This document shows positions 27,023 to 58,280 of a stretch of 64,000 bases of DNA, piece by piece (the first letter of the stretch is position 1; every line of letters starts with the position of its first letter). Source of the stretch: an uncultured Candidatus Saccharibacteria bacterium (GTDB lineage Bacteria > Patescibacteriota > Minisyncoccia > Sungbacterales > HO2-52-23); contig CAZPDF010000003.1 in NCBI GenBank assembly GCA_964585475.1, forward strand, positions 7,983-71,982, in the 5' to 3' direction. A program made the position numbers and the translations under genes. The notes below the pieces were generated by a model, which searched no databases, was not told where the DNA came from, and saw only the letters and a list, made by a program, of their open reading frames with translations.

Positions 27023-28423
27023 TTATCCATAGTAAACCTTATCTCTAACCAAGCGGATTTCCTCCTCCAGTTCAGTGTTTATTTTCAGCAAATTAGCAAT
27101 TTTTTCACAGGAGTGGATGGCCGTTGTATGGTCACGGCCGCCGAATCTTTCGCCGATGGAAGGGTAAGAGCTCTTGAGTTCGTCGCGCATCAAGTACATC
27201 GCGATTTGCCGCGGCTTCACAATATCACGCCTCCTAGAATGACTGATGAGCTCCCGTTCTTCAATATCGTAAAATTCGGACACCGCCTTCAAAATTTTCT
27301 TAGCGGACGCAAACTTTTTGGCAACGGTTTGGTGATTCGAGAGAATTTTTTTTACGGCCTCCACGTCCACGGGGGCGGAGGAGAGTTTAGCCGCCATGAC
27401 CACGCGGTTTAAGGCCCCCTCTAGCTCCCGGATGTTGGTTTTAATCACCTCGGCAACATGTTCAAGCACCGCATCCGGAAGAGAAACGGACTTGGCGGAG
27501 GCCTTGGTCTTCAGTATGAGAAGTCGGGTTTCAAAGTCAGGAAGGCCGATGTCCGCAATCATGCCTCCCTCAAACCGCGAGCGGAGGCGTTCTTCGAGGG
27601 TGGGGATCGCGCTCGGCGGCCGATCGGACGAAATAACAATCTGCTTATTTTTTTCAAATAACGAATTGAAAGTATGGAAGAATTCTTCCTGCATCTTCTC
27701 GGTCCGGGCAATAAACTGGATATCGTCGATAATAAGGAGATCAACCCCGCGGTACTTTTCTTTGAGCCGGCCCATTTCCTGGTTTTTTAACGCATCCACG
27801 ATCTCGCCCATATACTTCTCTGAAGGAACATAGCGCACGCGTATCCCCGGAGTTTTCTTTAGAAGCTCGTTACCTATGGCTTGGATCAGGTGCGTTTTAC
27901 CAAGGCCGACCCCGCCGTATATGAAAAGAGGGTTATAACTTGTGCCTGTATTTTTTATGACCGATTGGGAGGCGGCGTGTGCCAGTTCGTTAAAGGAGCC
28001 GACTATGAAATTGTCAAAAGAATACCGGGGATTAAGGTTGGTCTCCGGGTCGACCAAAAGCTCCCTCATGGAGAGCTCGTCTCCCTCGGATGGCGGCAGG
28101 GGCCCCACGCGTTTCCGTTTGGCCAGACGGTCTTTTAACGCCACGGCCACGCCTGCGCCTTCAGGTTTGCCGATAACGTAGCTCACGTCCTTGATCTCGG
28201 AGGAGATTTCCCGCAGGGCGTGAAGAATTGTCTTGTGGTATTTATTCTGCAGCCATTCCCGGGCGAATCCATTCGGAACAAAAACGGTGGCGATCCCGCC
28301 GTCCACCTCCGTAATTCCTGTCTCCTGAAACCAGGTAAGAAAACTAGGACGCGAAATATTAAGTTCGATTTTTGCCAGAACGGCTTGCCAAAGTTCGGTC
28401 TTTTCCATAAGGATCAAAAACAC
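27023..28423 (-). CDS. dnaA: chromosomal replication initiator DnaA
   Basis: AAA+ Walker A GGVGLGKTHL. C-terminal DNA-binding domain. Confidence 0.95.
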   Translation of the reverse strand: MFLILMEKTELWQAVLAKIELNISRPSFLTWFQETGITEVDGGIATVFVPNGFAREWLQNKYHKTILHALREISSEIKDVSYVIGKPEGAGVAVALKDRLAKRKRVGPLPPSEGDELSMRELLVDPETNLNPRYSFDNFIVGSFNELAHAASQSVIKNTGTSYNPLFIYGGVGLGKTHLIQAIGNELLKKTPGIRVRYVPSEKYMGEIVDALKNQEMGRLKEKYRGVDLLIIDDIQFIARTEKMQEEFFHTFNSLFEKNKQIVISSDRPPSAIPTLEERLRSRFEGGMIADIGLPDFETRLLILKTKASAKSVSLPDAVLEHVAEVIKTNIRELEGALNRVVMAAKLSSAPVDVEAVKKILSNHQTVAKKFASAKKILKAVSEFYDIEERELISHSRRRDIVKPRQIAMYLMRDELKSSYPSIGERFGGRDHTTAIHSCEKIANLLKINTELEEEIRLVRDKVYYG

Positions 28424-30859: not shown

Positions 30860-32053
30860 TTATTTTAATTTCAAACTCCACAATGTTCCGTCTCTGCGAT
30901 CGACGAACATAAGCCAATCCTTATTTTTAGTTACTGCAAGCTCCGATACGTCAAAATTGCCCTCCTCGAACACCGAAACCACTTCGTTTTTGTCCGGTAC
31001 TATGCGTACGATTCTGTCCGAAGTATTGATTTCCCCGCGCAAATAATCATCCGGCCAGAGTGCCGAGAAGGGAATTTCTTTAGGAACGGCGCAATATATT
31101 TCTTTTGCGTCGGCAAATATACATTTGGAAGCGATAGTTCGAATGCCGTCGAGGGGTGATAACAGCTTACCCGAGGAGTCATATAGCGCAAGATCCGGGT
31201 TTTTCCCGGCCAGGTCGGTTAAGGATACTAAAACTCGTGTCCCGTCATTGGACCAGCGCGACATAAGCCCCCGCAGGGGCCCCACGATTTTTGTGAGCGG
31301 CGTTGTCCGGGTGAACGTGAATAAAAATCCGTCGGCCAGGCCGGAGGGTGCGGTCTCAAGCGCAAATTTGCCTGCGGGTAGCGCGGAAAGCTCACCGTCA
31401 AAAACCGGAAGAGCGGCTATGGCCTGATTGTTTTTTCCGGAGGAAGCGACAATGACTAGTTTCATCCCTTCGCCATCGGTGAGAAGATAGACGGCGGTTT
31501 TTCCATCCGGCGCCCACGCAAAACTTTTTATATCCTGCGGCAGAGTGGCGACGGAGGAAGTTCCTATGTGCAGAAACCCTTTTAGCGTTTCGCCGTCAAG
31601 ATAAAATACTGCGGCGCGATCTCGGGCAGGTGACCAGAGCGCTTCGGTGATTCCTACGATGGTCAGGTTGGATATTTTTTCCTGGGGTTGGCCGTTGGGG
31701 GCGGAGGACAAGAGGTCCCCGCCGTCTTTTTTATAGAAAAGTATTTTGTCCTCTTTGGCGTTGAACGAAGCGCCGATTACCGGAAAATCAGTAAGCCGGA
31801 ACAATTTTCCTTCCAGGGTTTTCGGAATTTCAAATTCTACAGATTCTTCCCCGGCCGGAGAAGTGCCCGGCTCTGGGGCCCGTCCTCCCAAGGGCGAGGG
31901 CAATTTGCCGGCAACGCCACTTTCTTCCTGCGAGCCCCCCCGTTCGGTGGCGGCCGGCAATAAAAATTGATAGGCAAGAAACCCAAGACCCGCAAGAATA
32001 AGAATTCCTACCGCCCCATATATTATTAATTTTTTGCGTTGTAGCATTTCCAT
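30860..32053 (-). CDS. membrane-anchored TolB-like beta-propeller protein
   Basis: N-terminal transmembrane helix followed by WD40/TolB-like repeats (DGKTAVYLLTDGEG, DGTRVLVSLTD). Confidence 0.4.
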   Translation of the reverse strand: MEMLQRKKLIIYGAVGILILAGLGFLAYQFLLPAATERGGSQEESGVAGKLPSPLGGRAPEPGTSPAGEESVEFEIPKTLEGKLFRLTDFPVIGASFNAKEDKILFYKKDGGDLLSSAPNGQPQEKISNLTIVGITEALWSPARDRAAVFYLDGETLKGFLHIGTSSVATLPQDIKSFAWAPDGKTAVYLLTDGEGMKLVIVASSGKNNQAIAALPVFDGELSALPAGKFALETAPSGLADGFLFTFTRTTPLTKIVGPLRGLMSRWSNDGTRVLVSLTDLAGKNPDLALYDSSGKLLSPLDGIRTIASKCIFADAKEIYCAVPKEIPFSALWPDDYLRGEINTSDRIVRIVPDKNEVVSVFEEGNFDVSELAVTKNKDWLMFVDRRDGTLWSLKLK

Positions 32054-32065
32054 GGAAAAGTGTTT

Positions 32066-32548
32066 CTAAGGGCAGAACCCCGAAGCCGGAGCTGGCATGG
32101 GCGCCCCGGCCGGCTGGAGGCAGCGTAGATTTTGTACCCACCCGGCTCCGCCAACCAGGTCCGGGTTAATGGTGAACAGGATAAGATAGGAAAGCAGGGC
32201 AAGAACTAACCCCAATACGGCATTGCCCATATAATCGCGTGCGGTTTTGGCGCGCGACTCGCTGTCTCCGGCCGTAAGGTACATAATTCCTCCGATGACG
32301 AGCATGATGAGTGCGGAAATACCCACCAAACTTAAACCGAAGACATAGAGGCGGGCGAATATCTGTCCTATATCAAGCCCAACGTTTAGGAACTCAAGTC
32401 CCGGAACTTGCGCTTGCGCAATTGCGGCGAGTTCCACACAATGCCCTCCACCGCCGTTTCGGCAGGCGGCATCTACCCCAGAGCCATAAACGAATGCCGT
32501 AAAGAGGAGTACCGCGGCACCTAGATAAAAAATAGTTTTTTTCGTCAT
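32066..32548 (-). CDS. VirB2/TrbC-like type IV secretion pilin candidate
   Basis: Signal peptide followed by two hydrophobic helices separated by a short polar loop (LVGISALIMLVIGGIMYLTAGDSESRAKTARDYMGNAVLGLVLALLSYLILF). The 4-bp overlap with the upstream gene suggests one operon. Confidence 0.45.
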   Translation of the reverse strand: MTKKTIFYLGAAVLLFTAFVYGSGVDAACRNGGGGHCVELAAIAQAQVPGLEFLNVGLDIGQIFARLYVFGLSLVGISALIMLVIGGIMYLTAGDSESRAKTARDYMGNAVLGLVLALLSYLILFTINPDLVGGAGWVQNLRCLQPAGAPMPAPASGFCP

Positions 32549-33801
32549 TGCAGTATTAGGTCTATTATTTTTTCCGCCGGAGGAGCAAAGGAATTATTGC
32601 GCCCGATGCGTAAAGTTACCGAAGTTTTTCTGGCGGGCTGATTTTGGGTATCCACCGTAAGAAGGTGCGCATTTTCCGGAGAGCCGCTGATCTCATTTCC
32701 TCCGACATCCCAGACATAAGTAAGACTTTTTCTAGAGGTTACCGGAAAGAAAAATGGCTCCGCGATAAAATCCACCAGACCCCTTGTATCCGACGCAAAC
32801 GCGAAAATAGCTCGTCGCGTCTCAATGCCGCCAAGAGGCGAGGAACCATATATAACGGCGCGAGGGGTATAGGCGGGAACGAAGATTGTTTTTTCTTTGC
32901 GAATTCGCTTATTTGCGTCTTCAACGGTCAGACGGATAACGTGTGACGCGCCCGGCAAATCGGCCATTTGCACACGGAATATTTGTCTACCTACGCCAGC
33001 AAGCACGGGTTTTTGTTCGTCCAGCCCCCAACGGTAGATGAGAGTTTCCGGGCGCAGCATAACACCGCCCATTACAAATTGCGGAATTGCCGTAATCGCA
33101 ACCACTGATCCTTGCGAAGGCAGGGTCCTGCCTTTGTACCACTTGGGAACGTATGTTTCGGCGGACCACGTAACCGCGAGGTCGGATACGCGGATGGTGA
33201 GCGAGGCAGAATTTATTGTACCGTCCGGCCGCGACACGCGCACGTTCAGGGTTTCGGCTGATCCAACCCCGCCGGCAGTAAGGGCAAAGGTGTGTTTGCC
33301 GGGCCCGGAGAGATCGGAGCGGAAAACGCCGTTTACCGTCCAGGAGAAAGTTGCAAAATTCCTGTCGTAGGTCGGCATTCGCGCTTCAACCGTTATGGTT
33401 TCGCCAGGGGAAGGAGAACTTGGCGTAGCGACCACCAAGAGCGGTTCCTTAAGCTCCGAGAGCACAGAAGGATTAAATACATCCGACGGGACAGGAAAAG
33501 CGCTGGAAGGAACCTGGGGAGAGGTAGTGCCAAAAAGAGCCGAAAAGTCGGGGAGGGTTTGGGCGGACACAGCAAGGGCCACCAGGAGTCCCGCCGCCGC
33601 CAAGGCCGTTATCCACGCCCCAGAAGACCACGGGCTTGCCCGCGGACGAGTGGGTCTTCTGGAGGCGGGATTCCGCCCCTCGGCCAAGCCTGCAGGGCCT
33701 GACCGTAACGCAGGGGCACCACGGGCTTGCCCGAGGGGCTCCATTTTTGAAACCTTACGCATGTTCATATTTATTATACTTCCAAAAAGACCCGGCGTCA
33801 T
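32545..33801 (-). CDS. secreted or membrane-anchored hypothetical protein of the T4SS-like cluster
   Basis: N-terminal hydrophobic helix. Ser/Thr/Val-rich beta-rich sequence. Overlaps the VirB4 stop. Confidence 0.4.
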   Translation of the reverse strand: MTPGLFGSIINMNMRKVSKMEPLGQARGAPALRSGPAGLAEGRNPASRRPTRPRASPWSSGAWITALAAAGLLVALAVSAQTLPDFSALFGTTSPQVPSSAFPVPSDVFNPSVLSELKEPLLVVATPSSPSPGETITVEARMPTYDRNFATFSWTVNGVFRSDLSGPGKHTFALTAGGVGSAETLNVRVSRPDGTINSASLTIRVSDLAVTWSAETYVPKWYKGRTLPSQGSVVAITAIPQFVMGGVMLRPETLIYRWGLDEQKPVLAGVGRQIFRVQMADLPGASHVIRLTVEDANKRIRKEKTIFVPAYTPRAVIYGSSPLGGIETRRAIFAFASDTRGLVDFIAEPFFFPVTSRKSLTYVWDVGGNEISGSPENAHLLTVDTQNQPARKTSVTLRIGRNNSFAPPAEKIIDLILQ

Positions 33802-35633
33802 TAGGCCTTCGCGCCGGCCGCAAATTCCTCTTTGGCCTTTTTAATAAGTAAAAGCTGGGCCGGGTCAGAGGTAATAATCTGGTCTTCGGTGTAGGACCCG
33901 ATTACTTTTATCGCCACGTGCTTCAATCCGGCAAAGAATATTCCTTCCCCCCGCTCTGATTCAAGCAGGAGGAATTTTTCCTCCTCGGTCAGGTTGAAGG
34001 TTTGCATGACGAAATCAATGGTGGCGGGAGACTGCCGAAGAAGCATCTGCATGGAGGAATTGGTGATAATCGGTTTTCCGTAGGGAGAGTTAAAAAAGTC
34101 GCCCACGTCCTGCGTGACCGTGGTGAGCCCGAGATAGTACTTGCGTGCTCTTTTGGCAATGCCGAAAAGAAAAGATGCCCCGTCCTCGTGTTTCATCAAC
34201 CACCAGGCCTCGTCCACCACGAGGATCCTTTTTTTCAGGCGCGTGCGTATCTCGTTCCAAATAAACCGCAAGATAAGGAATATTCCCACCGCCCGCAGTT
34301 CGTCCTCCATGTCTCTTACGGAGAACACCACCAAGCGATTATTCATCTCGATATTGGTCGGCTGGTTGAAGAAGCCGGACCAGGTCCCGGTGGTGTATTT
34401 TTTCAGGCGCATCGCAAGATTTTCTCCGCCGGCGGTTGAGGCCAGAATCAGTTCAAGATCCGATAGGATCGGCGGAGTGATTTTCGAAAAGTCGGATTCA
34501 GGCGTGATGTCCCGCGAGGCGTAGGTTTCAGTAATTGCTTGATCAAGTATGGCATCCTCCTCGGCGGTGATCCCCCCCAGCATAATCCGGAAAAGCCCGA
34601 CCAAGTTTATGATGTTTGATCGGAGAACGTCTGACGGCGATTCATCCTCCCGAGGGACCGGAAGATCAAAAGGGTTTATGTGGTGTTTGGATGTAAGGGA
34701 GATGCCGATGTAGGAGCCGCCGACAACCTGCGCCAGATACTCATATTCTCGCTCGGGATCAATAACGATGACATCCGTATCCCACATAAGAGAGCGGATG
34801 ATTTCGAGCTTCATCAAATAGCTTTTTCCACCGCCGGAAATCCCGAAGATTACGGAATTGGCGTTGGGCAACGAGAATCGGTCAAAAAGTATCAAGCTGT
34901 TATTGTGGCGATTGATTCCGTAGAGAATGCCTTTATTTGAAGTAAGGTCAAACGACACAAACGGGAAAGTTGACGAAACGGGTGAAGAGTTGAGGTAGGT
35001 GTTGATTCCGAGTTTGTCGATGTTTAACGGGAGGACGGACTGGAAGCCCTCGGTCTGTTGGAAGAGGGCTGGCTTGGTATAGACCAGGCGCGACTCAAAA
35101 AGGGATTTAATTTCCGATTCGGTTTTATTTAGTTCCTGCTCCGAATAGCCGTAGATCGTAATATATAGGCCGAAGTTAAAAATTCTCTCAGTGGCCTGCT
35201 GGAGTTTGTCGCGGAGCTCCTCAAGGTCCTGGTGGGCGGTGTCCAGTATGGGGTCGCGGACGAGGCCCTTCTCCTCGCGCGCCGCAATCTGGGAACCCAC
35301 CTGCGCGACTTTACGGCGGAGCGTCTTTAGCATTGATCCGGTATCCACCGGATGGATGAACATAGAGACGTCGAATATTTTATCCAGATTTATAACGGGG
35401 CTGAACCAGGCCGTATGGAGGTAGCGCGGATAGGCGAAGATGAAAATGGTTCTGGCAAGTTTAGCTCCGAGGCGAATAAACGTCGGGTTGACTTCAAGCG
35501 CAGAGGGGGAGAGAACGTCTTTTAACGCAAGTTCGCCGGCCCGGTATATTTCTTCCGGGAAAACAGCAAAAATCTCCGATTCCGGATCTTTTTTAGTTTT
35601 AGTTCCAAAGAGTGAAACCACGAATATGTGCAC
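33801..35633 (-). CDS. VirB4/TrbE/CagE-family T4SS ATPase, C-terminal ATPase portion
   Basis: Walker A GISGGGKS and Walker B ILVVDEAWW. VirB4-type C-terminal domain. Begins with GTG, in frame with the upstream N-terminal ORF. Confidence 0.85.
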   Translation of the reverse strand: MHIFVVSLFGTKTKKDPESEIFAVFPEEIYRAGELALKDVLSPSALEVNPTFIRLGAKLARTIFIFAYPRYLHTAWFSPVINLDKIFDVSMFIHPVDTGSMLKTLRRKVAQVGSQIAAREEKGLVRDPILDTAHQDLEELRDKLQQATERIFNFGLYITIYGYSEQELNKTESEIKSLFESRLVYTKPALFQQTEGFQSVLPLNIDKLGINTYLNSSPVSSTFPFVSFDLTSNKGILYGINRHNNSLILFDRFSLPNANSVIFGISGGGKSYLMKLEIIRSLMWDTDVIVIDPEREYEYLAQVVGGSYIGISLTSKHHINPFDLPVPREDESPSDVLRSNIINLVGLFRIMLGGITAEEDAILDQAITETYASRDITPESDFSKITPPILSDLELILASTAGGENLAMRLKKYTTGTWSGFFNQPTNIEMNNRLVVFSVRDMEDELRAVGIFLILRFIWNEIRTRLKKRILVVDEAWWLMKHEDGASFLFGIAKRARKYYLGLTTVTQDVGDFFNSPYGKPIITNSSMQMLLRQSPATIDFVMQTFNLTEEEKFLLLESERGEGIFFAGLKHVAIKVIGSYTEDQIITSDPAQLLLIKKAKEEFAAGAKA

Positions 35634-35702
35634 TAGTTATTCACCAATAACACTAATTTACGACCTTTCTATATCCCGAGACCGTAGAAGAACCCATCTT
35701 TA

Positions 35703-35779
35703 GTTATCCTGAACGCAGTGAAGGATCTTTATTCCTCGGTATATCATACGGTTGAGGTGCTTCGCTTCGCTCAGCATGA
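35703..35779. repeat. GTCATCCTGAGCG-family palindromic element, copy C, between the two VirB4 ORFs
   Basis: GTTATCCTGAACGCAGTGAAGGA ... GCTTCGCTTCGCTCAGCATGAC. Confidence 0.65.
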
Positions 35780-35837
35780 CATTTTGAGACTCTTTTCTAC
35801 GGTTTCATCTTATCCCCGATCTGGTACATGTTCGTGG

Positions 35838-36482
35838 CTAGCTTGCGGCAGTTACCACTGCTTTCTCAAACTCCGTCGGGTTATAGAGCCCGTAGAATAG
35901 CTCGATCAGTTCCTCTGTATTCAGCGGGGCCGAGCGCACGCCAACCCGCTGGAGCCCTGCCACCACCGTATCTACCCTCTGCCAGAGCTGATTTTTGTGT
36001 TCTTCAAAAGAATCTCCTGTCCCGCCCGCCGTTTCTTTTTTGGCCAGGCCCAAGGCGGAGGTGAGTCCGCCGAGTATCCCTTTTTGTTCGAGCATCGGGG
36101 GGGTAAAGGGCACGACGGCGTAGAAAGTTTTGGACATGATGTTGGTCATCTCCACGAACGTTTTTATAAATTCCATGTATTCGGTAACCTGTATTTTTAA
36201 AAGTTCGTTGTCCTCCTCTTTCTGTCGTGTCTGTAGTGACTCAAGGTAGGGCGCGACGTTAAGGCGTCGCGAATGGACCACAAATTGCAGCGGAAAGTCG
36301 AGGGAATTCAAAAAATTCTGGTATTGGAAAATAATCGCGTCCTGTTCATCGCTTGATTTGAGAGCGAAGTTTAGCGAGGAGCACATAAGAATTACGCGAA
36401 GCCCGCCGTCTTTTAAGATGGCCGTGTCTTCCCGAACGGTTTCAATCGCCAAAAATTGTTGGGCTGATGCGCCAGTGGGCAT
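35838..36482 (-). CDS. VirB4-family N-terminal domain (separate ORF, same frame as the ATPase portion)
   Basis: REDTAILKDGGLRVILMCSSLNFALKSSDEQDAII resembles the VirB4/TraE N-terminal domain. The stop lies 204 nt upstream of the ATPase ORF's GTG start. Confidence 0.55.
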   Translation of the reverse strand: MPTGASAQQFLAIETVREDTAILKDGGLRVILMCSSLNFALKSSDEQDAIIFQYQNFLNSLDFPLQFVVHSRRLNVAPYLESLQTRQKEEDNELLKIQVTEYMEFIKTFVEMTNIMSKTFYAVVPFTPPMLEQKGILGGLTSALGLAKKETAGGTGDSFEEHKNQLWQRVDTVVAGLQRVGVRSAPLNTEELIELFYGLYNPTEFEKAVVTAAS

Positions 36483-36527
36483 ACGCGAATATTAAACGAA
36501 TTATTTAACGAATAAGAACTAATAAAT

Positions 36528-36905
36528 TTAGGGACGGTGGACGATCCGCTTGTAACGGACACCGGTTTTCGAAAAAAGTGTAAGTATTCCCAAGCGCAGT
36601 TTCGCCGCCTTCAGATAGCTATAAATCTGCTTGCTGTCTTGTGCATAAAATCTGGACGCAACTTTTAATTCCAACACTATTTTATTTTCTATCAGAAAAT
36701 CTAGCCGATACTTCCCCGCCTTTTTGCCTTCGTACTCCAGCGGGATTTCGATCTCTTTTTGGTAGACCAGGCCGAGTTTATCAAATTCGTGGGCAAGCGC
36801 GCGCTGATAATACTGTTCTCTATAGCCATGCCCGAGTGTATTGAAAACCTTGAAAATCGCCCCAATTATTTTATAACTTAGTTCTTTATACAAGATTTCG
36901 GGCAT
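36528..36905 (-). CDS. GxxExxY family protein (PD-(D/E)XK-like)
   Basis: YEGKKAGKYRLDFLIENKIVLELKVASR matches the GxxExxY family core. Confidence 0.65.
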   Translation of the reverse strand: MPEILYKELSYKIIGAIFKVFNTLGHGYREQYYQRALAHEFDKLGLVYQKEIEIPLEYEGKKAGKYRLDFLIENKIVLELKVASRFYAQDSKQIYSYLKAAKLRLGILTLFSKTGVRYKRIVHRP

Positions 36906-36939
36906 TTATTCGTTGGGATTCGTTTTGAAAATTAGTTCA

Positions 36940-37374
36940 TTATTCGCGTCTTGGTTCTTGCGTTTTCTCTTTAATATCTAAACTCCAGGCCAGATCATTA
37001 AGTTTGGATTCCGAAAGCTTGGGGATGTTTTTTATAAGGACCTCCGGTTTTTTTAATCTTTCCTCCGGTTTGGCTTTTTTGGAGGGCGGCTCCTTTTTCC
37101 AGAGGTAGAGACGCGGGCGAATCAGATAGAGCGCCGCGCTTTTTAGAATTATCGGAAAGGGCTGCTCATTTAACTTAAGGAACGCGAGGGAACCGGCCAG
37201 CGAGCCGATGATAAGGGCTGTTAGGTAGAACAGGAACCCGGTGAAGAATCGCGAGGCGATGAAAATAAGGACGGCCCCGGCCCCGAGATAAAAAAACTGT
37301 TTTATCGTGAAGGGGCCGATAACCTTGTCCTCGACCGTAATAAATTGCGGAACCTGATACTGCCTCATAAGCAA
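36940..37374 (-). CDS. small two-transmembrane-helix protein, possibly VirB3-like
   Basis: Two adjacent hydrophobic helices and a basic tail. Sits immediately upstream of VirB4, separated only by the GxxExxY gene. Confidence 0.3.
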   Translation of the reverse strand: MLMRQYQVPQFITVEDKVIGPFTIKQFFYLGAGAVLIFIASRFFTGFLFYLTALIIGSLAGSLAFLKLNEQPFPIILKSAALYLIRPRLYLWKKEPPSKKAKPEERLKKPEVLIKNIPKLSESKLNDLAWSLDIKEKTQEPRRE

Positions 37375-37477
37375 ACAAGAATATAGAACTTAGGTCTTAG
37401 AACCGGTTACGACTTTCTTATATTATCGCAGAGTTCCACGGGCTTGCCCGTGGGTATCTACATTCTCTCCGCGGCTA

Positions 37478-38437
37478 TTACTCCATCGGTTCTTTATAAG
37501 GATCATGCCCGGGGCCCTTCTCGGTAAATGGACGCTGCTCTCTCTCTACTTCTTCCGGCGCTCCGGGCATTTTTGGCGCCGCCGTTGTCTCGGGTTTTTT
37601 TTCCGGCGCGGGCGAGCGGCGAAGGGCAGAGAATATGTCTTCTTCGCGTTTCAAGGGGTCGGGTGCGGCCGGTTTAGCTTGCTGCTGGTCTCTGCCCGAC
37701 TGTCTTAAATCAAGCGGTGGAACTTTGGAGGCGCCAAAGGGAGACGGTGTTGGTTTTTCTTCTGCGGCGTTTCGCGTAGAGGATTCTCTGCCCTCGCGAT
37801 ACGGATCAAAACCCCCGTACGGAGATTTTTTTGGAGGGGGCGGGACAGCCGGCGTAACAGGAGATCCGGCTGGCTTTATTTCTTGAGCGGGGGGCTTGGG
37901 CGTCTCCGGCTTTTTTGGTACGGGCGCTGGAGAAGGCGGTACTGCTGTTGCGGCCGCGGAACTAATCGCGCTTGGTTTTTGCTGTCGCAGGTCAATAGGA
38001 GAAACCCTAGACGATGCTGGCGGAGGTTGCGATTCTTGGGTCTTTGGTGGCGAAACAACGGCATGCCTTACCAACACCTCGGACTTCTGTATTTCCTCCT
38101 CGGTCATCTCCACCTGATGAGCGGAGCGTAGGGCCTCGCGCAGGGGGTAGAAAATTTGGTGGTTTATCTCCGAGGCGATTTTTTTAGCCGTGTCCGCGTC
38201 AACGATAAGCGTACTTGCAAGCGCCTGGACAAATTCGCGGGGCTTGGTGAGCCCCATGATTACCAGCCCCGTCTCCCCGGCCGCGGCCCCCCGTTTTTCG
38301 GTGGTGAGCCCAAATTTCTTGCCGATTTCATATAGCTTATCTGCGCCTTCCACGCTTAACAAAGCGTCCTTCAGGACTTCGGGAAGTTTTTTAAATTGCT
38401 CTTCAAGCTCCTCTTTTTTGTAAGGTTTGTTTACCAT
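37478..38437 (-). CDS. proline-rich hypothetical protein with an N-terminal globular domain
   Basis: About 120 aa structured N-terminus, then a long P/S/A/K-rich low-complexity region. Confidence 0.4.
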   Translation of the reverse strand: MVNKPYKKEELEEQFKKLPEVLKDALLSVEGADKLYEIGKKFGLTTEKRGAAAGETGLVIMGLTKPREFVQALASTLIVDADTAKKIASEINHQIFYPLREALRSAHQVEMTEEEIQKSEVLVRHAVVSPPKTQESQPPPASSRVSPIDLRQQKPSAISSAAATAVPPSPAPVPKKPETPKPPAQEIKPAGSPVTPAVPPPPKKSPYGGFDPYREGRESSTRNAAEEKPTPSPFGASKVPPLDLRQSGRDQQQAKPAAPDPLKREEDIFSALRRSPAPEKKPETTAAPKMPGAPEEVEREQRPFTEKGPGHDPYKEPME

Positions 38438-38448
38438 TGGATTCGGGA

Positions 38449-40806
38449 TTACTGTAACCGCTCTCTTAGGTTTTTAATGCGGGCTTCCAGTTTTTTCACC
38501 TCGACCTCTCGTATGTTTTCTGCTTCTCGCTGCCGGTTTTGCTGGTCGAGACTTCCGGCGCGCTCTTCCAGAACCTTAAGCTGGTCTTCTAAATCCCGAA
38601 GCTGTTCCACGCGTTTTCCTATCTCCTGCTCAACGCGTTCCTGAGCTCTTTCCGTTTCGCGCGTTTCTCTTTGTGCGGCCCTTTCCTCTTCTGCTACGAT
38701 CCGCCCCGCTTCTGCCCGTTGCTCCGCCACTTGTTCACGCTGGACGGCTGTGGGCGGGGTGGCGTTTTCGGGAAGCGACAGCCCCATTTCCTGCGCGTAG
38801 TTTGAGGAAAGATAGCGGTAGGTTTCCGGCTTCATGTTAACCACCATCTGCGGTTCGAGCTCGATCCCATTCATGAATGCCTCTCTTAGCGCCGGATTTT
38901 CGCGAGCGATTCGTTTTATGTGCTCGGGATCCAGGTTCGGCACCAATATTCTTATCACGTCCATATTAAGTGCTCCGGTCGTGGGGTCCTTTATGCCCTC
39001 AAGGGACATCTTGGCCCATTCTTCGGGCTTCATTTTACGGGCCGTCTCTCTAATGGCCTCTTCTCTGGTCCGGGTATCAGGGACGAGATCGGGCGTGGCA
39101 AGATCGGGACGCGCCTTCAAAAGGTCTTTTTGCAGACCGAATTGAGTAGCCAGACGAAGGACCTGTGCTTGGTTGCCCCCGAGTTTCGAAAAGTCGCCTC
39201 TTTCTGAAAGAATCTGGGCGATGGCTACTTTATTTTCGGCCAAGGTGCTCTGGTTGAAGTCGGTTACGAGATTTTGGCTTGACCAGTTTTCGCGCCCCTT
39301 TCTTTTTTCGGTAACCCGCTGTTTCTGTGATTCAAGGTATCCGGTAACCTTTCGCGAGGCCGGTGCCGCCATCTTTCCAAGATACGGCGTTTGCGCGAGC
39401 CGCTCCTGCGCCTTGGTTATGGCGGGCGCCGCACGCCTGGCAGCCGCAGCAGCTGCCAAAGAAGCGCCGCCGGTGGCATAACCCAACCCAACAGCGGCGC
39501 CTGTTTTGGCAAGAGCTACGGCCGTATCCCCTATGGCAATGCCCATTTTTCTGCCGATGGTGATGGACGCCCATAAGAACCCGACGAATACAAAGAGGGG
39601 CAACATTAGAAGCAGGTTTCCCGCCAGGGTTGAATTTGTTCCCATGGTGGTGATGGGCCCCCGCGTCATGGCGTCAAGAATTAATAACGAAACATAAAAC
39701 AGCGCGTAGAAGGCCGGCGCAAAGAATGCCCAGCGAAGTAGGGCGTTAAGCCATTTATTCCACCAGCCCATAATGGTTGGGTTGGGTATGGCAAAAGCCA
39801 GAAAGGCAAATGGCGCGAGAATGGCAAGAAACACCATGGCAATGATTCGCGCAAGAAGCGTGGCCCAGGCGGCTATGAATGCGACAATGACCAATAGAAA
39901 AAGGAATATGGTAACTGCCAATGTCCACGACATTTTGAGGAGAATTGCGGTAGAGAGAAACCCTTTTAAAAATGCGTCTGCTGCTTCGGCGGCATACGCA
40001 ACAGCCGAGCTTGCGTTAATACATCCTTGCTGGGCGCCGGGACCCGTGGCGCTAGGATTAATTAACGCTGCCAAGCCGCAGTCAACGCTGGTGCTAGCGG
40101 GCATAGTAGGGACGCCGGTGGACACGTTGCTGGCAAGCTGTAATTTTACGCGCTCGGTAATAAATCCGGAAAGATCTCGAGGCAGAGCTTGGCGAAACGG
40201 AATGGCAATCGCATTGGCAAACCCGAAAACCGCAGAAACCATCGCCAAACTGAAATTTATCAGAAGCGCTACGATGATGATGCGGACAAGAAATTTTCTT
40301 CCACCAAGGTGCTCGATGCTGAAAATAATGGTAAAAGCAATCCAGAGAAGGATAAGAATAAAGAAAGAATTCGCAATGTCCCGCATAATCCCCCAAGCGT
40401 ACTGCACCGCGGGCATATTACTAGGATTTAGCACAACCGCGTAGAAGAAAATGTTATCAAGGATAAAGGCCTGTATGATGAGTATGCTAGATACAATCAG
40501 CTTTACTATAACCAGCATTATAAACCACAAGAGGGCGGGTATGTTGGTTGCCAGCCCGGCTGTTGCGCCAATAATGCCCGATATCCATGCGCCGATCCCG
40601 GTCGTAGGAGGTGTCGGAGCTTGCGCCAAAGCCGCAAAGGGCAACAACAATATTCCGGCAAACAATGCGCGCGCGGCGATCCGTATCAGGGGGGCAGGTT
40701 TTTTAATAGAAAGAAGCGCCATAAAAATTTTATTACGGAAAGACCGCCGTTGTGAGACGGGTAACGAGCGCGTTGGCAATAGCCACAATTGCCTCCGAAA
40801 GCTCAT
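38449..40806 (-). CDS. VirB6/TrbL-like polytopic membrane protein with a C-terminal coiled-coil extension
   Basis: Signal peptide, at least 8 transmembrane helices in the N-terminal ~480 aa, then a hydrophilic ~300 aa coiled-coil tail. Confidence 0.45.
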   Translation of the reverse strand: MSFRRQLWLLPTRSLPVSQRRSFRNKIFMALLSIKKPAPLIRIAARALFAGILLLPFAALAQAPTPPTTGIGAWISGIIGATAGLATNIPALLWFIMLVIVKLIVSSILIIQAFILDNIFFYAVVLNPSNMPAVQYAWGIMRDIANSFFILILLWIAFTIIFSIEHLGGRKFLVRIIIVALLINFSLAMVSAVFGFANAIAIPFRQALPRDLSGFITERVKLQLASNVSTGVPTMPASTSVDCGLAALINPSATGPGAQQGCINASSAVAYAAEAADAFLKGFLSTAILLKMSWTLAVTIFLFLLVIVAFIAAWATLLARIIAMVFLAILAPFAFLAFAIPNPTIMGWWNKWLNALLRWAFFAPAFYALFYVSLLILDAMTRGPITTMGTNSTLAGNLLLMLPLFVFVGFLWASITIGRKMGIAIGDTAVALAKTGAAVGLGYATGGASLAAAAAARRAAPAITKAQERLAQTPYLGKMAAPASRKVTGYLESQKQRVTEKRKGRENWSSQNLVTDFNQSTLAENKVAIAQILSERGDFSKLGGNQAQVLRLATQFGLQKDLLKARPDLATPDLVPDTRTREEAIRETARKMKPEEWAKMSLEGIKDPTTGALNMDVIRILVPNLDPEHIKRIARENPALREAFMNGIELEPQMVVNMKPETYRYLSSNYAQEMGLSLPENATPPTAVQREQVAEQRAEAGRIVAEEERAAQRETRETERAQERVEQEIGKRVEQLRDLEDQLKVLEERAGSLDQQNRQREAENIREVEVKKLEARIKNLRERLQ

Positions 40807-41599
40807 CCGAATTTACGATAAAATCAAAATTGGAGCCGACCGCCTTTCTTAACTCGTCCGTCACTAAACTCCCCGGCGTTTGCACACGCGATTGTGTAGT
40901 GCAGCCAATCGGAGCCCCGGTGTAGCTATCGTATTCGCAGGTCTGATTCTGGGCCTGTACCCCCAAGAATCCTTGGCCGGTAAGGTATTGTTGGTTGATA
41001 GCGTCAGCCCTAGCTGCTTCAGAAAGAATCTTCTCCTCGAAGGCAATCAAATAGGCGGCGTACGGGTCATTTTGGGGACTTAGGTTGTAACTAATAAAGG
41101 CCGGCCAGCCGCCATTTTGGAAGTTTTGGAAATAGGCCTGGACGTTCGCCACAATCGCGGTGACGGTGCAAGTAAGTTTTTGCGATAGACGGCTGCCGCT
41201 ACCCGCAGACCTCCGCAGGCCCCTATTAAGAAAGGACCCCAAATTCCCGCAAAGATTTAGTCCTGCAATTTGGTTTAAAAATTCGCCGCCCCTCTGATCA
41301 ACCTGCCCCCGCAAAAAACCTTCAAAATCCTGCACAAAGTCCCCTCCCCCGCCCTGAATCCAGCCAATAATCTGCTGGGTGAGGAATTGGATCAGGGCCG
41401 AAGTTACAATGCGGAGCAGGAGATCAAAAAAGCCCTCTTTATCGCAGTTAAAATCAAGAATGCTACAATGAATCGGGACGGAGGCCGTGGCTTCGCGCGG
41501 AAGTACAAGGAGGGCGGCGGACGGCGCGAGCAAAACAAAAACAAGAGCCGGAACAACGAGGCAGTGGAGGAGCTTATTTTTAGAAAAGAAAGAGATCAT
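40733..41599 (-). CDS. secreted hypothetical protein
   Basis: Signal peptide (LLHCLVVPALVFVLLAPSAALL). Cys- and Gln-rich. Confidence 0.4.
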   Translation of the reverse strand: MISFFSKNKLLHCLVVPALVFVLLAPSAALLVLPREATASVPIHCSILDFNCDKEGFFDLLLRIVTSALIQFLTQQIIGWIQGGGGDFVQDFEGFLRGQVDQRGGEFLNQIAGLNLCGNLGSFLNRGLRRSAGSGSRLSQKLTCTVTAIVANVQAYFQNFQNGGWPAFISYNLSPQNDPYAAYLIAFEEKILSEAARADAINQQYLTGQGFLGVQAQNQTCEYDSYTGAPIGCTTQSRVQTPGSLVTDELRKAVGSNFDFIVNSDELSEAIVAIANALVTRLTTAVFP

Positions 41600-41645
41600 T
41601 CCTCATTTTAAATTTTACGAACTGGTAGCGAGTAACCTCATAAAT

Positions 41646-41789
41646 GTCATTCTGAGCGCAGCCGAGCGAAGCGAGTCCTGAGCGATAGCGAAGGAGCCCA
41701 TACGAGAGACCCCTCACTGCGTTCAGGGTGACACTCCATGTCAGATTCTTCACTTCGTTCAGAATGACGATCGAAGGGTTCAGGACGAC
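41646..41789. repeat. GTCATCCTGAGCG-family palindromic element, composite copy D
   Basis: GTCATTCTGAGCGCAGCCGAGCGAAGCGAGTCCTGAGCGATAGCGAAGGA ... CTTCACTTCGTTCAGAATGAC ... GGTTCAGGACGAC. Confidence 0.6.
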
Positions 41790-41820
41790 AACGTGTAAAA
41801 ACGTTTACTCACCACCAGTT

Positions 41821-42945
41821 CTACAATTGAGGATAAAGCAGGGGGGCTTTGTCGCCCGGAAGGAAAACTATATTTTTTTCCCGGAGCCACTGCGGTATTT
41901 CGTTTCTGTGAAAAGCAGTTACTTCTTTTTTTAGTTCCGTACGCAAACTGACCAGAAGGAGAATAAGCAGGGGGTCATCCAGCGACACGTCTTTTAATAA
42001 AGAAAGTTGCTCCACCGTTTTTCTCATGAACCAAATTTCTTTTTTGTGGAAGACGAGAACCACCTGCGGCGCGGGAAGCAGAAGAAGTTCTTTACCGATA
42101 CCCCCGGCCGCCGTAAAAAGGAGACCGATTTTCTCAAGCAGGGCGCTGTCTTTGGTTTGCAGAGCCCGGGTCATTATTTCCGTATCGTCCATGTCGCCCT
42201 TGAGAGGTGCCAAGTTCTTCTCATAAATTGCGGCCACTGAATTGAAATACGTTTTTACGGCACTGTTGCTTGAGTCGCTGGAGACGCGGACCTCGCTGTC
42301 GCTTACGGCATCAGCGGAAAATTTTATTGAAGCGCCCTTTTTGAACTCTTCAATATAAGCCAGGAATTCGGAAGACACTCTTTCGGCTCCGTCTTTTTGC
42401 AAAAACGACTGGACTCCTTCTTTTTGGGCGACTTGTCCGAAGAGGATCTGGGTAAGATTCCCTCCGGCAACAACCTCGCGGAGAAGATCAAGTGAACCGC
42501 CCTGCCCCAGAAACACCATACTCGCATCCGCCGTATCTTCGGGGCCCGGTTTCTTAGGATTTCGCTTTTGGGCGATCTCATCGCCATCCTTCGTGCCGTC
42601 GCCATCGGTGTCGGGTTTATTTGGATCCGTGCCGTAGACCGTTTCTTCCCAGTCCTTTAGCCCATCGTTGTCGCTGTCCAGGAGCGCTGGGGATGCGGAT
42701 TTCCCTCCAGAGATAGCTGTTACACGGGTTTCGATAAAATCGTCCTCACCCGGAGTAAGCCAGAAAGATATCTTGAGTCCAGCCAATAAGATGATAACCC
42801 CAAAAACCACAAGGAACATACTTGCTTTCCACCGTGATTTTGGCAAAATGGGAATAGAGGATAATCTCATGCATCTAGTGTGGATTATACCATGATATCT
42901 TGTGTCCGGCCTGTGGATAACTCTGGGACCCAAGATGGATGCCAC
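41821..42945 (-). CDS. membrane-anchored protein with calcium-binding-like Asp-rich repeats
   Basis: Transmembrane helix followed by DSDNDGLKDWEE...DPNKPDTDGDGTKDGDE (thrombospondin type 3-like D-x-D-x-D-G motifs). Confidence 0.4.
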   Translation of the reverse strand: MASILGPRVIHRPDTRYHGIIHTRCMRLSSIPILPKSRWKASMFLVVFGVIILLAGLKISFWLTPGEDDFIETRVTAISGGKSASPALLDSDNDGLKDWEETVYGTDPNKPDTDGDGTKDGDEIAQKRNPKKPGPEDTADASMVFLGQGGSLDLLREVVAGGNLTQILFGQVAQKEGVQSFLQKDGAERVSSEFLAYIEEFKKGASIKFSADAVSDSEVRVSSDSSNSAVKTYFNSVAAIYEKNLAPLKGDMDDTEIMTRALQTKDSALLEKIGLLFTAAGGIGKELLLLPAPQVVLVFHKKEIWFMRKTVEQLSLLKDVSLDDPLLILLLVSLRTELKKEVTAFHRNEIPQWLREKNIVFLPGDKAPLLYPQL

Positions 42946-44072
42946 CAGCCAATCTTTTTATGACAATTTCGCGAAGAAATTTATATATACTCGGCGGCGC
43001 CGTTCTTTTGGCGGTCTTTGTGGCCCTCTTTTTACTGCCAAGGCCTTCCGGAGAAAAAGAAGCAGGCCAAGACGGTACACTTACTAAAGAAGGGCTTATT
43101 TCGTCTACCCCCCGCACCGTGGTGGGCCGTCCGGAGACCGGGCCTCCGGACACTCTTAACCTTCCCCCTCCCCCCCCAATTGAGAGGTTAGCACCGCCCT
43201 CCCCGTCGGTTAACGAACTTATCGGGGAGATTAGCGAGAGGGTCTTGGAACAAGCCCCGAATATTCCGCCATCACTCCTGTCACTTTTTGAGAATCTAAA
43301 ACGGGCCCTTCCCCAGCCAGCGGCCCCGACTGTCCAGCTTTCGGAAGAAGAAATATTTCAAAAGATTTGGCCCGCGAACGTTAGGGATACGCTAAAAGAT
43401 CTTGGGAACCTCGTAATTAAAGACGGGGTAATAGTAAAAGAGATTCCAACCTCTGGCGGGGAAAGTGGCGCGGGCGTCAAGGGGATTCCTATTCAAAATT
43501 GGTCTATGTCCGAAGGCGGCACGAATGAATTTAAAACCGACGTAGACATGTATAGATCTCTTGGCGCGCTTTTAGACGAGTCCCTTAAGCAGGGATGGAT
43601 TAAAGACCAGGAATATAAAAATCTCAAGAAGGGTCTTACCCAAGACCTACCCCTTATAGTCGAAAAACAAAAAGAGGCCCTGCGTAAGTGGGGGCGATTT
43701 GGTGGATCAGCCAGCGGGTCCGACCTTAGCATGGTCCCCGCAGATCCAAAAAAACTTATTGGTGATCTCTTTTCGTTTCTTTCCAATTTGCTGCCTATTG
43801 CACCAGAGGCCAAGGCCTTTTGGTATACTTTCCCTGATTGCTACAAAGACGATATTCCGGTTTACCCCGTACCCGGCTTCAGCTTGTGGGACCCATTTTG
43901 TAACAGCGGCTTTTATTGTGCTTATGGGTGTACATTTGTATATGACTGTGGTTATCAAGGCGTATACTGCAATGTTCCTATCGGTTGCCTTAACCTAATT
44001 TGCCGGGCGTGGCCCAATGCCATATGGGATGCTGTCTGGTATCCGGGTACGGGGATTTGCGGCTGCGGCTAG
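42939..44072 (+). CDS. membrane-anchored protein with a C-terminal Cys/Tyr/Trp/Gly-rich domain
   Basis: N-terminal transmembrane helix, a Pro-rich linker, and a ~70 aa C-terminus carrying 12 Cys. Confidence 0.4.
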   Translation: MPPANLFMTISRRNLYILGGAVLLAVFVALFLLPRPSGEKEAGQDGTLTKEGLISSTPRTVVGRPETGPPDTLNLPPPPPIERLAPPSPSVNELIGEISERVLEQAPNIPPSLLSLFENLKRALPQPAAPTVQLSEEEIFQKIWPANVRDTLKDLGNLVIKDGVIVKEIPTSGGESGAGVKGIPIQNWSMSEGGTNEFKTDVDMYRSLGALLDESLKQGWIKDQEYKNLKKGLTQDLPLIVEKQKEALRKWGRFGGSASGSDLSMVPADPKKLIGDLFSFLSNLLPIAPEAKAFWYTFPDCYKDDIPVYPVPGFSLWDPFCNSGFYCAYGCTFVYDCGYQGVYCNVPIGCLNLICRAWPNAIWDAVWYPGTGICGCG

Positions 44073-44075
44073 CTA

Positions 44076-44150
44076 AAAACCACAAATATGCACACGAATT
44101 TAGCACGAATAACACAAATATAATTATGTTTCATTCGTGCGATTGGTGGG
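44076..44150. repeat. CACGAAT/ATTCGTG-rich intergenic element, copy 3
   Basis: CACGAAT x2 and ATTCGTG within an AT-rich palindromic context. Confidence 0.4.
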
Positions 44151-45005
44151 TGATTTGTGCATCAATTGGTGGGCTAGCTTTACCCATCCTTCAAGCGAGA
44201 GCTCTTGCGGGCGGGCCGTATCTTTCAGGCCGGCTTTTTTTATTGCCTCGAGCATGTGGTTTTTATCTAAGAGTTGAGTGAGAGAACGCGCCAGCGTTTT
44301 TCTTTTCTGCGAAAAAGCCCGACGAAGAATCTCAAAGAAACGTGCCTTATCTATGCTATTTTCTTCAAAAAATCGTCCCGAAATATCGGCGATTTTTATT
44401 ATCGCAGACTCCACTTTCGGCTGTGGCGAAAAACAGGAAGCCGGGACGGTTTTTATAACTTCCGGTTTCCCAAAGGCCTGAACCGAGAGCGCAAGAAGGT
44501 TCATTTGGGGGGGGCGAGCGCACATTCTTTCGGCGACTTCTTTTTGTATCGTTAATACGATTTGATTTGGTCTCGGACCGTTTTCGAGGAGCAACCGGAT
44601 TAGTCGAGAGGTAAGGTAATAAGGAATGTTGGCCACGACTTTGTAATCTGTGCTGCTATTAACGCCATCCTGAGCGCGAGCGAAGGACCTATGAGGTTCT
44701 TCAGTCCGGCTTCTGCCGGACTTCAGAACGACGTTTTTATGAATACGAAGAACGTCTCCGGGGATCACGGCGACATTATTAATCCCCTCTTTACGGAGGG
44801 AATTTTCTAATTCTTCGGCCATTCTTTCGTCTTTTTCCACCGCAATCACTTTCCCGGCGTGCTTCGCCAGCTCTCGCGTCAAGACCCCGGTTCCCGGACC
44901 GACCTCCAGAACCGTATCGTCCGAGTTTATATCTGCGGCTTTGATAAGAGTAGAAATTACCCACCGGCAGCGTAGAAAATGTTGACCTAGTCGGGCGCGC
45001 ACCAT
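44124..45005 (-). CDS. rsmA: 16S rRNA (adenine1518/1519-N6)-dimethyltransferase RsmA/KsgA with an in-frame repeat insertion
   Basis: LGQHFL, VLEVGPGTG (SAM-binding) and VVANIPYY motifs. A 23-aa insert VLKSGRSRTEEPHRSFARAQDGV is encoded by the palindromic element at 44664-44732. Confidence 0.85.
   Translation of the reverse strand: MVRARLGQHFLRCRWVISTLIKAADINSDDTVLEVGPGTGVLTRELAKHAGKVIAVEKDERMAEELENSLRKEGINNVAVIPGDVLRIHKNVVLKSGRSRTEEPHRSFARAQDGVNSSTDYKVVANIPYYLTSRLIRLLLENGPRPNQIVLTIQKEVAERMCARPPQMNLLALSVQAFGKPEVIKTVPASCFSPQPKVESAIIKIADISGRFFEENSIDKARFFEILRRAFSQKRKTLARSLTQLLDKNHMLEAIKKAGLKDTARPQELSLEGWVKLAHQLMHKSPTNRTNET
44664..44732. repeat. GTCATCCTGAGCG-family palindromic element, copy E, in-frame inside rsmA
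   Basis: CCATCCTGAGCGCGAGCGAAGGACC ... GGACTTCAGAACGAC. Confidence 0.65.
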
Positions 45006-45042
45006 AAAGCTCCAAACTACAACTGATCGATAATTCAAAATT

Positions 45043-48433: not shown

Positions 48434-48522
48434 GAAACCACGAATTAGTACACGAAAGCCGCACTAATGACATGAATAAACGATATGAACATTCGTGTTG
48501 TTCGTGAATCGATTCGTGGTTT
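48428..48522. repeat. CACGAAT/ATTCGTG palindromic element, copy 4
   Basis: GGAAACCACGAAT ... ATTCGTGGTTTTATATTTCC. The ends are inverted copies of each other. Lies between convergent genes. Confidence 0.5.
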
Positions 48523-58213: not shown

Positions 58214-58280
58214 AGCTCCACGGGCAAGCCCGTGGTCTTCTGGCGCGTGGATAAAAAAAGCACCCGCTGGGGGTGCTACG

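Follow-up and report, generated by a model that had tools for sequence, protein, structure and literature searches.

A type IV secretion-like operon beside dnaA and dnaN in an uncultured Candidatus Saccharibacteria bacterium and its likely place among the non-conjugative Patescibacteria systems

Does a cluster of VirB-like genes lying next to a bacterial dnaA gene belong to a plasmid transfer apparatus, or is it a resident machine with another task? The question was raised by a 64,000-nucleotide stretch of DNA from an uncultured Candidatus Saccharibacteria bacterium (GTDB lineage Patescibacteriota; Minisyncoccia; Sungbacterales; HO2-52-23; GenBank assembly GCA_964585475.1, contig CAZPDF010000003.1, positions 7,983 to 71,982), here called the window. 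Ten genes on its minus strand (30860-42945) form a tightly packed operon of intact open reading frames (ORFs) that resembles a type IV secretion system (T4SS). An initial annotation, made from the letters alone, had proposed a reduced, non-conjugative T4SS-like apparatus and not a plasmid transfer system. Our analysis supports this proposal: the cluster is very likely a non-conjugative Patescibacteria T4SS located beside dnaA/dnaN, as indicated by its housekeeping flanks, the lack of conjugation genes among the ORFs scanned, conserved synteny, co-divergence with the neighboring genes, and the published literature.

Along the minus strand the block encodes, in order, a protein with thrombospondin type 3 (TSP3) repeats, a 288-amino acid (aa) protein, a likely extended VirB6, a protein ending in a DPYREP motif, PrgI/VirB3, TrsD, VirB4, a triple immunoglobulin-like (triple-Ig) protein, a VirB2-like pilin and a TolB-like propeller. 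All ORFs of the initial annotation were present at their coordinates and intact, those of the block packed on this strand. The wider order is uvrD, ksgA, a Cys-rich gene on the opposite strand, the ten genes from TSP3 to propeller, jag/yidC (opposite strand), dnaA and dnaN. On the propeller side, dnaA (27023-28423), accompanied by yidC/jag and dnaN, is 2.4 kb from the end of the block; on the other flank ksgA (44124-45038), with uvrD, is 0.05 kb away. The G+C content of the block (0.49-0.54) is the same as that of the flanks. The placement next to the origin region stands as far as the dnaA-dnaN adjacency goes, but a DnaA-box scan found no box cluster beside dnaA, and the label "origin region" therefore rests on that adjacency alone.

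The ATPase gene (33801-35633, minus strand, 610 aa) encodes a VirB4 of the Gram-positive (MPF-FATA-like) type. Its product scored 354 bits with the NCBIfam model NF045971 ("VirB4-like conjugal transfer ATPase, CD1110 family"), whose cutoff is 325, and matched PF19044 with an E-value of 7e-24. The translation contains recognizable Walker A (GISGGGKS) and Walker B (ILVVDE) motifs. Among solved structures the Thermoanaerobacter VirB4 domain is the closest (PDB 4ag5, 2e-42), and the match to TrwK of R388 is far weaker (4e-7). Judged by these sequence matches the VirB4 identity is unambiguous, and the ATPase is predicted to be the motor of the system. A match to the CedB profile was also detected at 42 bits (4e-11), where the cutoff is 700.

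Upstream of virB4 lies a gene for a 214-aa TrsD/TraD-like protein (35838-36482, minus strand), a stand-alone homologue of the VirB4 N-terminal domain. It matched the N-terminal parts of full-length VirB4 models in NCBIfam as well as the TrsD/TraD family; among its orthologues, VirB4 N-terminal regions were matched by 57 of 57 and TrsD by 51 of 57. VirB4 had been described as occurring in two parts. Profiles confirmed both parts, but no disruption is involved: in each of the 73 related loci with both parts, the N-domain and the ATPase are encoded by separate ORFs, so the split is an ancestral two-gene arrangement, as in pGO1-type Gram-positive systems. The same count rules out a split caused by a palindromic or selfish element. 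In most relatives the two ORFs overlap or are less than 25 nt apart, and in the window the spacer is 204 nt.

The remaining core components are membrane proteins. The PrgI/VirB3-like protein (36940-37374, minus strand, 144 aa) matched PF12666 (E = 7.7e-6, profile positions 2-79 of 91) and has two hydrophobic segments, in agreement with the two-helix VirB3-like protein expected there. The VirB2/TrbC-like pilin (32066-32548, minus strand, 160 aa) consists of a signal peptide followed by two hydrophobic helices (hydrophobic segments at residues 6-24, 67-85, and 109-127). Its earlier assignment is borne out by PF18895, which is also matched by 40 of 42 orthologues; PF04956 (TrbC/VirB2) is matched by 9 of the 42. 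The 785-aa polytopic protein (38449-40806, minus strand) has about nine hydrophobic segments and a hydrophilic tail of about 300 residues, and it is likely an "extended VirB6" homologue, an assignment that is weakly supported for this copy. PF04610 (TrbL/VirB6) was matched by 15 of 47 orthologues, with a best E-value of 6e-8. The polytopic character was correctly recognized at first; in the proposed 300-aa coiled-coil tail, high charge and coiled-coil-like character are confined to the last ∼90 residues. In an identical metagenomic contig (L081) the gene call starts at 40722, 28 codons later, giving a protein of 757 aa. This is probably the true VirB6 start, and it would abolish the overlap with the upstream gene.

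We scanned 40 ORFs of the window for domains, including all those of at least 300 aa. Relaxase, VirD4/TcpA, VirB11, and integrase domains were found in none of them, which upholds the earlier remark that relaxase, VirD4 coupling protein and VirB11 are missing from the window. Domains of the VirB7/VirB9/VirB10 core complex were likewise not found among these ORFs. Nearly all scanned ORFs outside the cluster are housekeeping genes (MurE-type ligase, UvrB, PolA, PBP1, RuvABC, PNPase, tRNA synthetases, and others). The exception is the sole T2SSE-family ATPase of the window (15639-17303), 16 kb from the T4SS; because it carries an MshEN N-domain, it is predicted to be PilB-like, i.e., part of type IV pilus machinery, and no VirB11. 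Family profiles of the TSP3, 288-aa, and 319-aa (DPYREP) proteins gave no PDB match to VirB8, PrgL, TraM, or TcpC.

Related loci also gave evidence for a resident system. The 80 VirB4 loci closest to that of the window were all from metagenome-assembled or single-amplified genomes of Patescibacteria, at 54-85% VirB4 identity. The best named relative belongs to Candidatus Sungiibacteriota (80% identity), and others to Giovannoni-, Ryan-, Nomura-, Kaiser-, and Campbellbacteria. Gene presence was scored by single-query BLAST, hence the counts are lower bounds; upstream genes were counted in the 39 loci in which 9 kb or more of DNA precede virB4, and downstream genes in the 47 loci in which 6 kb or more follow it. 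PrgI and TrsD were present in 39/39 loci and VirB6 in 37/39, followed by the 288-aa protein (28/39), the BLAST-detectable DPYREP protein (22/39), and the TSP3 protein at the same position (20/39); ksgA was found upstream in 30/39. Downstream, the propeller was present in 40/47 loci, the pilin in 39/47, the triple-Ig protein in 38/47, and dnaA in 31/47. The gene order was colinear in 76 of the 80 loci. A synteny check had been suggested at the outset, and the arrangement from uvrD-ksgA to dnaA-dnaN indeed recurs in dozens of Patescibacteria (Parcubacteria/Paceibacteria) genomes. Identities to the window are correlated between VirB4 and each of DnaA, DnaN, YidC, and KsgA (Spearman 0.56-0.72), and the median identity to the window is 66% for VirB4 vs. 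50% for DnaA. Since VirB4 co-diverges with its neighbors and is better conserved than DnaA, the system appears to be a vertically inherited, strongly constrained core system and no mobile element.

These features agree with published descriptions. In a survey of the phylum, Quinonero-Coronel et al. (2025; PMC12102498) found a monophyletic Patescibacteria VirB4 clade allied to MPF-FATA, with TrsD, PrgI, VirB6, and VirB2-like pilins widespread beside virB4, relaxases almost absent, type IV coupling proteins (T4CPs) rarely nearby, and the Paceibacteria system located near dnaA, dnaN, and ksgA. The window has the corresponding combination: an MPF-FATA-affine VirB4, an adjacent separate TrsD, PrgI/VirB3, a likely VirB6, a PF18895 pilin of the VirB2 type, and the dnaA/dnaN/ksgA site with no relaxase or T4CP nearby among the scanned ORFs. 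Compared to the Paceibacteria arrangement of that survey, nothing essential is different; the window adds intergenic insertions resembling miniature inverted-repeat transposable elements (MITE-like) and repetitive extragenic palindromes (REP-like), and a GxxExxY gene. Wang et al. (2023; PMC10633639) showed that the T4SS of the Saccharibacterium Southlakia is essential for epibiotic growth; it has a Gram-positive-like composition with pilins and no coupling protein or relaxase, and their supplementary gene table gives the core order VirB6-PrgI-(TrsD-like)-VirB4 at the chromosome start. A 2025 FEMS review (PMC12857230) lists the Patescibacteria T4SSs as a distinct newcomer to the superfamily, and a 2026 preprint describes tubular structures at the parasite-host interface that may be T4SS pili. 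The system itself is thus already published, and the window holds another member.

The window can also be compared with individual systems. The T4SS of Southlakia epibionticum (Saccharimonadia; SEML1_0006-0019) likewise has VirB6, PrgI, a TrsD-like gene, and VirB4 in this order near the chromosome start, PF18895 pilins, and no coupling protein or relaxase. It differs in having two giant VirB6-like proteins, an opposite-strand array of six divergent pilins, and VirB4 followed by lysozyme/peptidase genes; in the window there is only one pilin, VirB4 is followed by the triple-Ig and propeller genes, and the block contains no hydrolase. With the Gram-positive MPF-FATA systems (pGO1/pSK41 trs, pCF10 prg, pIP501 tra, CTn2 CD1110) the window shares a CD1110-family VirB4, a PrgI-type VirB3, and the lack of a VirB7/9/10 outer-membrane core; its TrsD/TraD-like gene is separate, as in pGO1. 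Unlike the cluster of the window, these systems are carried by mobile elements, encode a relaxase, a T4CP (PcfC/TraJ), a VirB1-like hydrolase, and VirB8-like proteins, and lack a VirB2 pilin. Among the window ORFs scanned, the marks of a conjugative T4SS or integrative element (relaxase, T4CP, mobile-element context) were not found. Helicobacter pylori ComB and archaeal Ced are VirB4-driven channels without relaxase or T4CP, and a functional analogy to the window is possible. By sequence the window belongs to neither: the CedB match is far below the cutoff and no ComB7-10-like proteins were found. ComB has a VirB7-10 core complex (diderm), and the Ced proteins are unrelated to those of the window except for the ATPase.

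Five further families of the block are conserved. The gene downstream of virB4 (32545-33801, minus strand) encodes a 418-aa membrane-anchored or secreted protein with three tandem Ig-like beta-sandwich domains. An AlphaFold2 (AF2) model from a 25-sequence alignment (mean predicted local distance difference test score, pLDDT, 87.6; predicted TM-score, pTM, 0.72) places three beta-sandwich domains after an N-terminal helix, and Foldseek matched it to tandem Ig/FN3 structures (NCAM Ig1-3, phage Hoc, the SbsB S-layer protein, and adhesin extender domains) at 1e-9 to 1e-7. We conclude from the model that the protein probably consists of three Ig-like domains, with which a threefold W..NG..SG.G repeat and weak PKD/BiPBP_C matches in orthologues agree. 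A VirB8 (NTF2 fold) or VirB9 identity, which had been put forward for checking, is ruled out by the model and the Foldseek matches. The annotated start of this ORF overlaps the VirB4 stop, and its N-terminal ∼60-90 aa are non-conserved and cross two REP-like hairpins; for this reason the true start is probably internal and 33801 too far upstream.

The last gene of the block (30860-32053, minus strand, 397 aa) encodes an N-terminally anchored TolB-like beta-propeller. Its family profile matched TolB structures at 1.7e-10 and below, PD40 was matched by 8 of 47 orthologues, and the hydrophobic segment is at residues 9-27, all consistent with the membrane-anchored propeller first proposed. The first gene (41821-42945, minus strand, 374 aa), initially read as a TSP3-like Asp-repeat protein, proved to match PF18884 (7.9e-11). 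Its product has an N-terminal anchor (one hydrophobic segment, residues 43-61), invariant Ca-binding TSP3 repeats (DxDxDGLxDWEE...DTDGDG), and a C-terminal domain of about 220 aa. A PDB profile search matched only the TSP3-type repeats of a biofilm surface protein, with no detectable relative of the ∼220-aa domain.

The 288-aa protein (40733-41599, minus strand) is secreted or anchored, mostly helical, and has conserved Cys residues; W80, C117, C144, and C221 are invariant. The family is Patescibacteria-specific. It has 189 homologues at E ≤ 1e-5, the few named ones all "hypothetical" and none with a precomputed Pfam domain. The copy in the window is a short form: most orthologues (L002, L005, L007, L014, and others among the related loci) have 450-700 aa with extra C-terminal domains, and some carry CHB_HEX_C, Fn3_assoc, or Big_13 modules. 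The AF2 model from a 65-sequence alignment was poor (pLDDT 60, pTM 0.28), the best Foldseek match of this poor model had E = 0.45, and a PDB profile search gave no match. PDB profile searches with the TrsD, pilin, 288-aa, and DPYREP families returned nothing meaningful.

The fifth family is that of the DPYREP protein (37478-38437, minus strand, 319 aa). It combines an N-domain of about 110 conserved residues, a disordered Pro-rich linker whose length varies greatly, and the C-terminal motif DPY(R/K)EPxE-COOH, in which D312, Y314, and E316 are invariant across the alignment. The linker accounts for the "proline-rich protein" that had been placed between VirB6 and the VirB3-like gene. The N-domain was found in about 3,700 cluster representatives (50% identity) at E ≤ 1e-3 in a library of 1.84 billion proteins, and some family members have two N-domains. 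The motif ends 129 of the 150 best matches, and in the 80 loci it is confined to the gene between VirB6 and PrgI. No hydrophobic segment is present, and the protein is predicted to be cytoplasmic. The suggestion that it might be VirB8- or VirB9-like found no backing: there is no sequence match and no transmembrane anchor, which such proteins would need. The family gave no PDB match, Pfam scans returned only scattered chance-level matches, and no relevant publication turned up when the literature was searched for the DPYRE motif. The main text and the searched portions of the supplementary tables of PMC12102498 do not mention propeller, TSP3, triple-Ig/PKD, 288-aa, DPYREP, or GxxExxY neighbors; on that part of the source, the five conserved accessory families, the DPYREP-tailed family among them, are apparently undescribed.

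The cluster had also been described as interrupted by selfish elements. Such elements are present, as palindromes and a GxxExxY gene, but they lie between genes and no ORF is broken. The GxxExxY gene (36528-36905, minus strand), of the PD-(D/E)XK nuclease family, occupies the PrgI-TrsD spacer. Its identity, already recognized in the initial annotation, is secured by TIGR04256 (5.9e-33) and PF13366 (1.6e-32), and it is best regarded as a passenger or selfish gene and no part of the T4SS. It is absent from most relatives, including the closest ones (L001 and L002). GxxExxY genes that are only 34-60% identical occur in the same spacer of the window and of three related loci (L004:8507-9205, L005:8235-8666, and L056:2888-3298), which suggests recurrent insertion at one site or a long-standing presence/absence polymorphism.

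A MITE-like palindrome (35690-35800) lies in the widened 204-nt TrsD-VirB4 spacer, and a second copy (41640-41775), an inverted repeat, in the spacer between the TSP3 and 288-aa genes. The second copy has a predicted RNA fold of -50.9 kcal/mol (z = -3.1). Both copies have the termini GTCAT(G/T)CTGAGCG...CGTTCAG(A/G)AT(G/A)AC, and a partial copy is located near 450-476. The REP-like hairpin CCACGGGCAAGCCCGTGG has four copies in the window (33630-33643, 33721-33734, 37438-37451, and 58220-58233), giving 6 matches over two strands vs. 0.7 expected by chance. The first three belong to the cluster; the first and second fall in the 5' extension of the 418-aa ORF, which is not conserved, and the third lies between prgI and the 319-aa gene.

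Several neighbors of the block deserve mention. The divergently transcribed Cys-rich protein (42939-44072, 377 aa, anchored or secreted; hydrophobic segment at residues 15-33) is encoded on the plus strand and has 10 Cys in its last 77 residues, not the 12-Cys C-terminal domain counted earlier. A Pfam search gave no match. Because only 4-5 loci have an orthologue at this position, its link to the T4SS is weak, and it is a possible accessory at most. At 3.3 kb past the cluster lies a gene for a LysM and peptidase M23 protein (47369-48433), syntenic in only 2 of the 80 related loci, that could act as a VirB1-like wall hydrolase. A ComM-like competence-associated ATPase of the Mg-chelatase family (48522-50042) is also encoded near the cluster and was detected in only 1 of the 80 loci. 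Farther away, an isocitrate-lyase/PEP-mutase family protein (55032-56036) is unexpected for a metabolically reduced genome of the Candidate Phyla Radiation. An Rfam search of the window found four tRNAs and no other match, and nothing inside the cluster.

A number of points weigh against placing the cluster among the Patescibacteria T4SSs as a working system of this kind. The PrgI score (26.8 bits) is just below the Pfam gathering score of 27, and the pilin score for PF18895 (26.6 bits) is exactly at the gathering score. The VirB6-like protein of the window itself has no Pfam or NCBIfam match; its assignment relies on the orthologues and on the top PDB match of the family profile, TrwI (VirB6 of R388, 7o3v), which is weak (E = 2.8e-4). 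The 204-nt palindrome-bearing spacer might disturb the TrsD-VirB4 translational coupling seen in relatives. Finally, function, substrate, and direction of transport of the Paceibacteria systems are points that we infer, and the roles given to the five accessory proteins are read from synteny and predicted topology.

What the machine transports is a separate matter, and conjugation is an unlikely function. One tentative explanation, which concerns function and not identity, is DNA uptake: the machine would be a competence-type T4SS comparable to Helicobacter ComB or archaeal Ced and would import DNA or other nucleic acid from the environment or the host to feed nucleotide-auxotrophic cells. As in ComB, T4CP, relaxase, and VirB11 were not found among the scanned ORFs of the window; VirB4 has a weak match to CedB (4e-11); import of DNA or macromolecules was proposed by Quinonero-Coronel et al. 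(2025; PMC12102498); and a 2026 preprint ties the Minisyncoccota VirB4 clade to feeding on host RNA. However, the CedB match, at 42 bits where the cutoff is 700, reflects generic VirB4 similarity, and the conserved block contains no DNA-binding or processing gene. In Southlakia, moreover, ComEC-dependent competence is dispensable and the T4SS is essential, and the authors favor protein export or another role (PMC10633639).

An effector-export or pilus-adhesion machine, which secretes proteins into or onto a host bacterium or makes only an adhesive pilus, with no nucleic-acid transport, is an option that we hold with similar reserve. The operon encodes a VirB2-like pilin together with surface modules typical of adhesins (three Ig-like domains, Ca-binding TSP3 repeats, and a propeller), protein export was suggested by Wang et al. 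(PMC10633639), and effector translocators without a T4CP are known (Bordetella Ptl and Brucella VirB). On the other hand, effector candidates or secretion signals were not identified, and the sole conserved C-terminal motif (DPYREP) is found in one operon-encoded protein. It is highly improbable that the cluster is the decaying relic of an integrated conjugative element or of a plasmid transfer region, left after relaxase and coupling protein were lost; in our view this is ruled out by synteny and by the co-divergence of VirB4 with its neighbors. VirB4, TrsD, and PrgI are indeed nearest to Gram-positive conjugation families, and the cluster contains selfish elements, namely a GxxExxY gene and two MITE-like palindromes. 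But all ORFs are intact, the selfish elements are intergenic only, the order between the same housekeeping genes is kept even where VirB4 identity is as low as 54%, DnaA is less conserved than VirB4, the G+C content is uniform, the flanks are housekeeping genes, and no integrase was found among the scanned ORFs.

Taking the cluster as a non-conjugative Patescibacteria T4SS, we envisage that VirB4 and the separate TrsD would dock on PrgI and VirB6 in the membrane, and that VirB4 would power the assembly of a VirB2-type pilus or a conduit through the wall. The four extracytoplasmic proteins with single anchors (triple-Ig, propeller, TSP3, and 288-aa) may build or decorate the wall-spanning, host-contacting part and stand in for the missing VirB8, VirB1, and adhesins. 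By contacting a host cell and moving macromolecules, the machine would support an epibiotic way of life; uptake of host-derived material is our leading guess, and effector export is nearly as likely.

A bolder version of this scheme is that the five non-canonical genes are true lineage-specific subunits of the Paceibacteria T4SS, with the DPYREP protein as an adaptor or substrate receptor replacing the coupling protein and the other four as a wall-spanning, host-contacting module unlike the described T4SS cores. We consider it rather unlikely in this full form. Speculatively, the DPY(R/K)EPxE tail might dock on the VirB4/TrsD ATPase, in the way SSB-type or FtsZ-type C-terminal peptides dock on their partners, and the N-domain on its long flexible linker might bind cargo or serve as a tether for the motor.

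A large part of bacterial diversity is accounted for by Patescibacteria, and attachment to other microbes is their usual way of life. To our knowledge, their T4SS is the only one that is essential for the growth of its own carrier bacterium. The window provides a clean, complete Paceibacteria example of it and nothing categorically new; the added value is moderate and lies in the accessory-gene assignments and in the corrections to the first reading. The syntenic unannotated partners (triple-Ig, TolB-like propeller, TSP3, 288-aa, and DPYREP proteins) offer well-defined starting points for structural and genetic studies of the way in which these bacteria tap their hosts.

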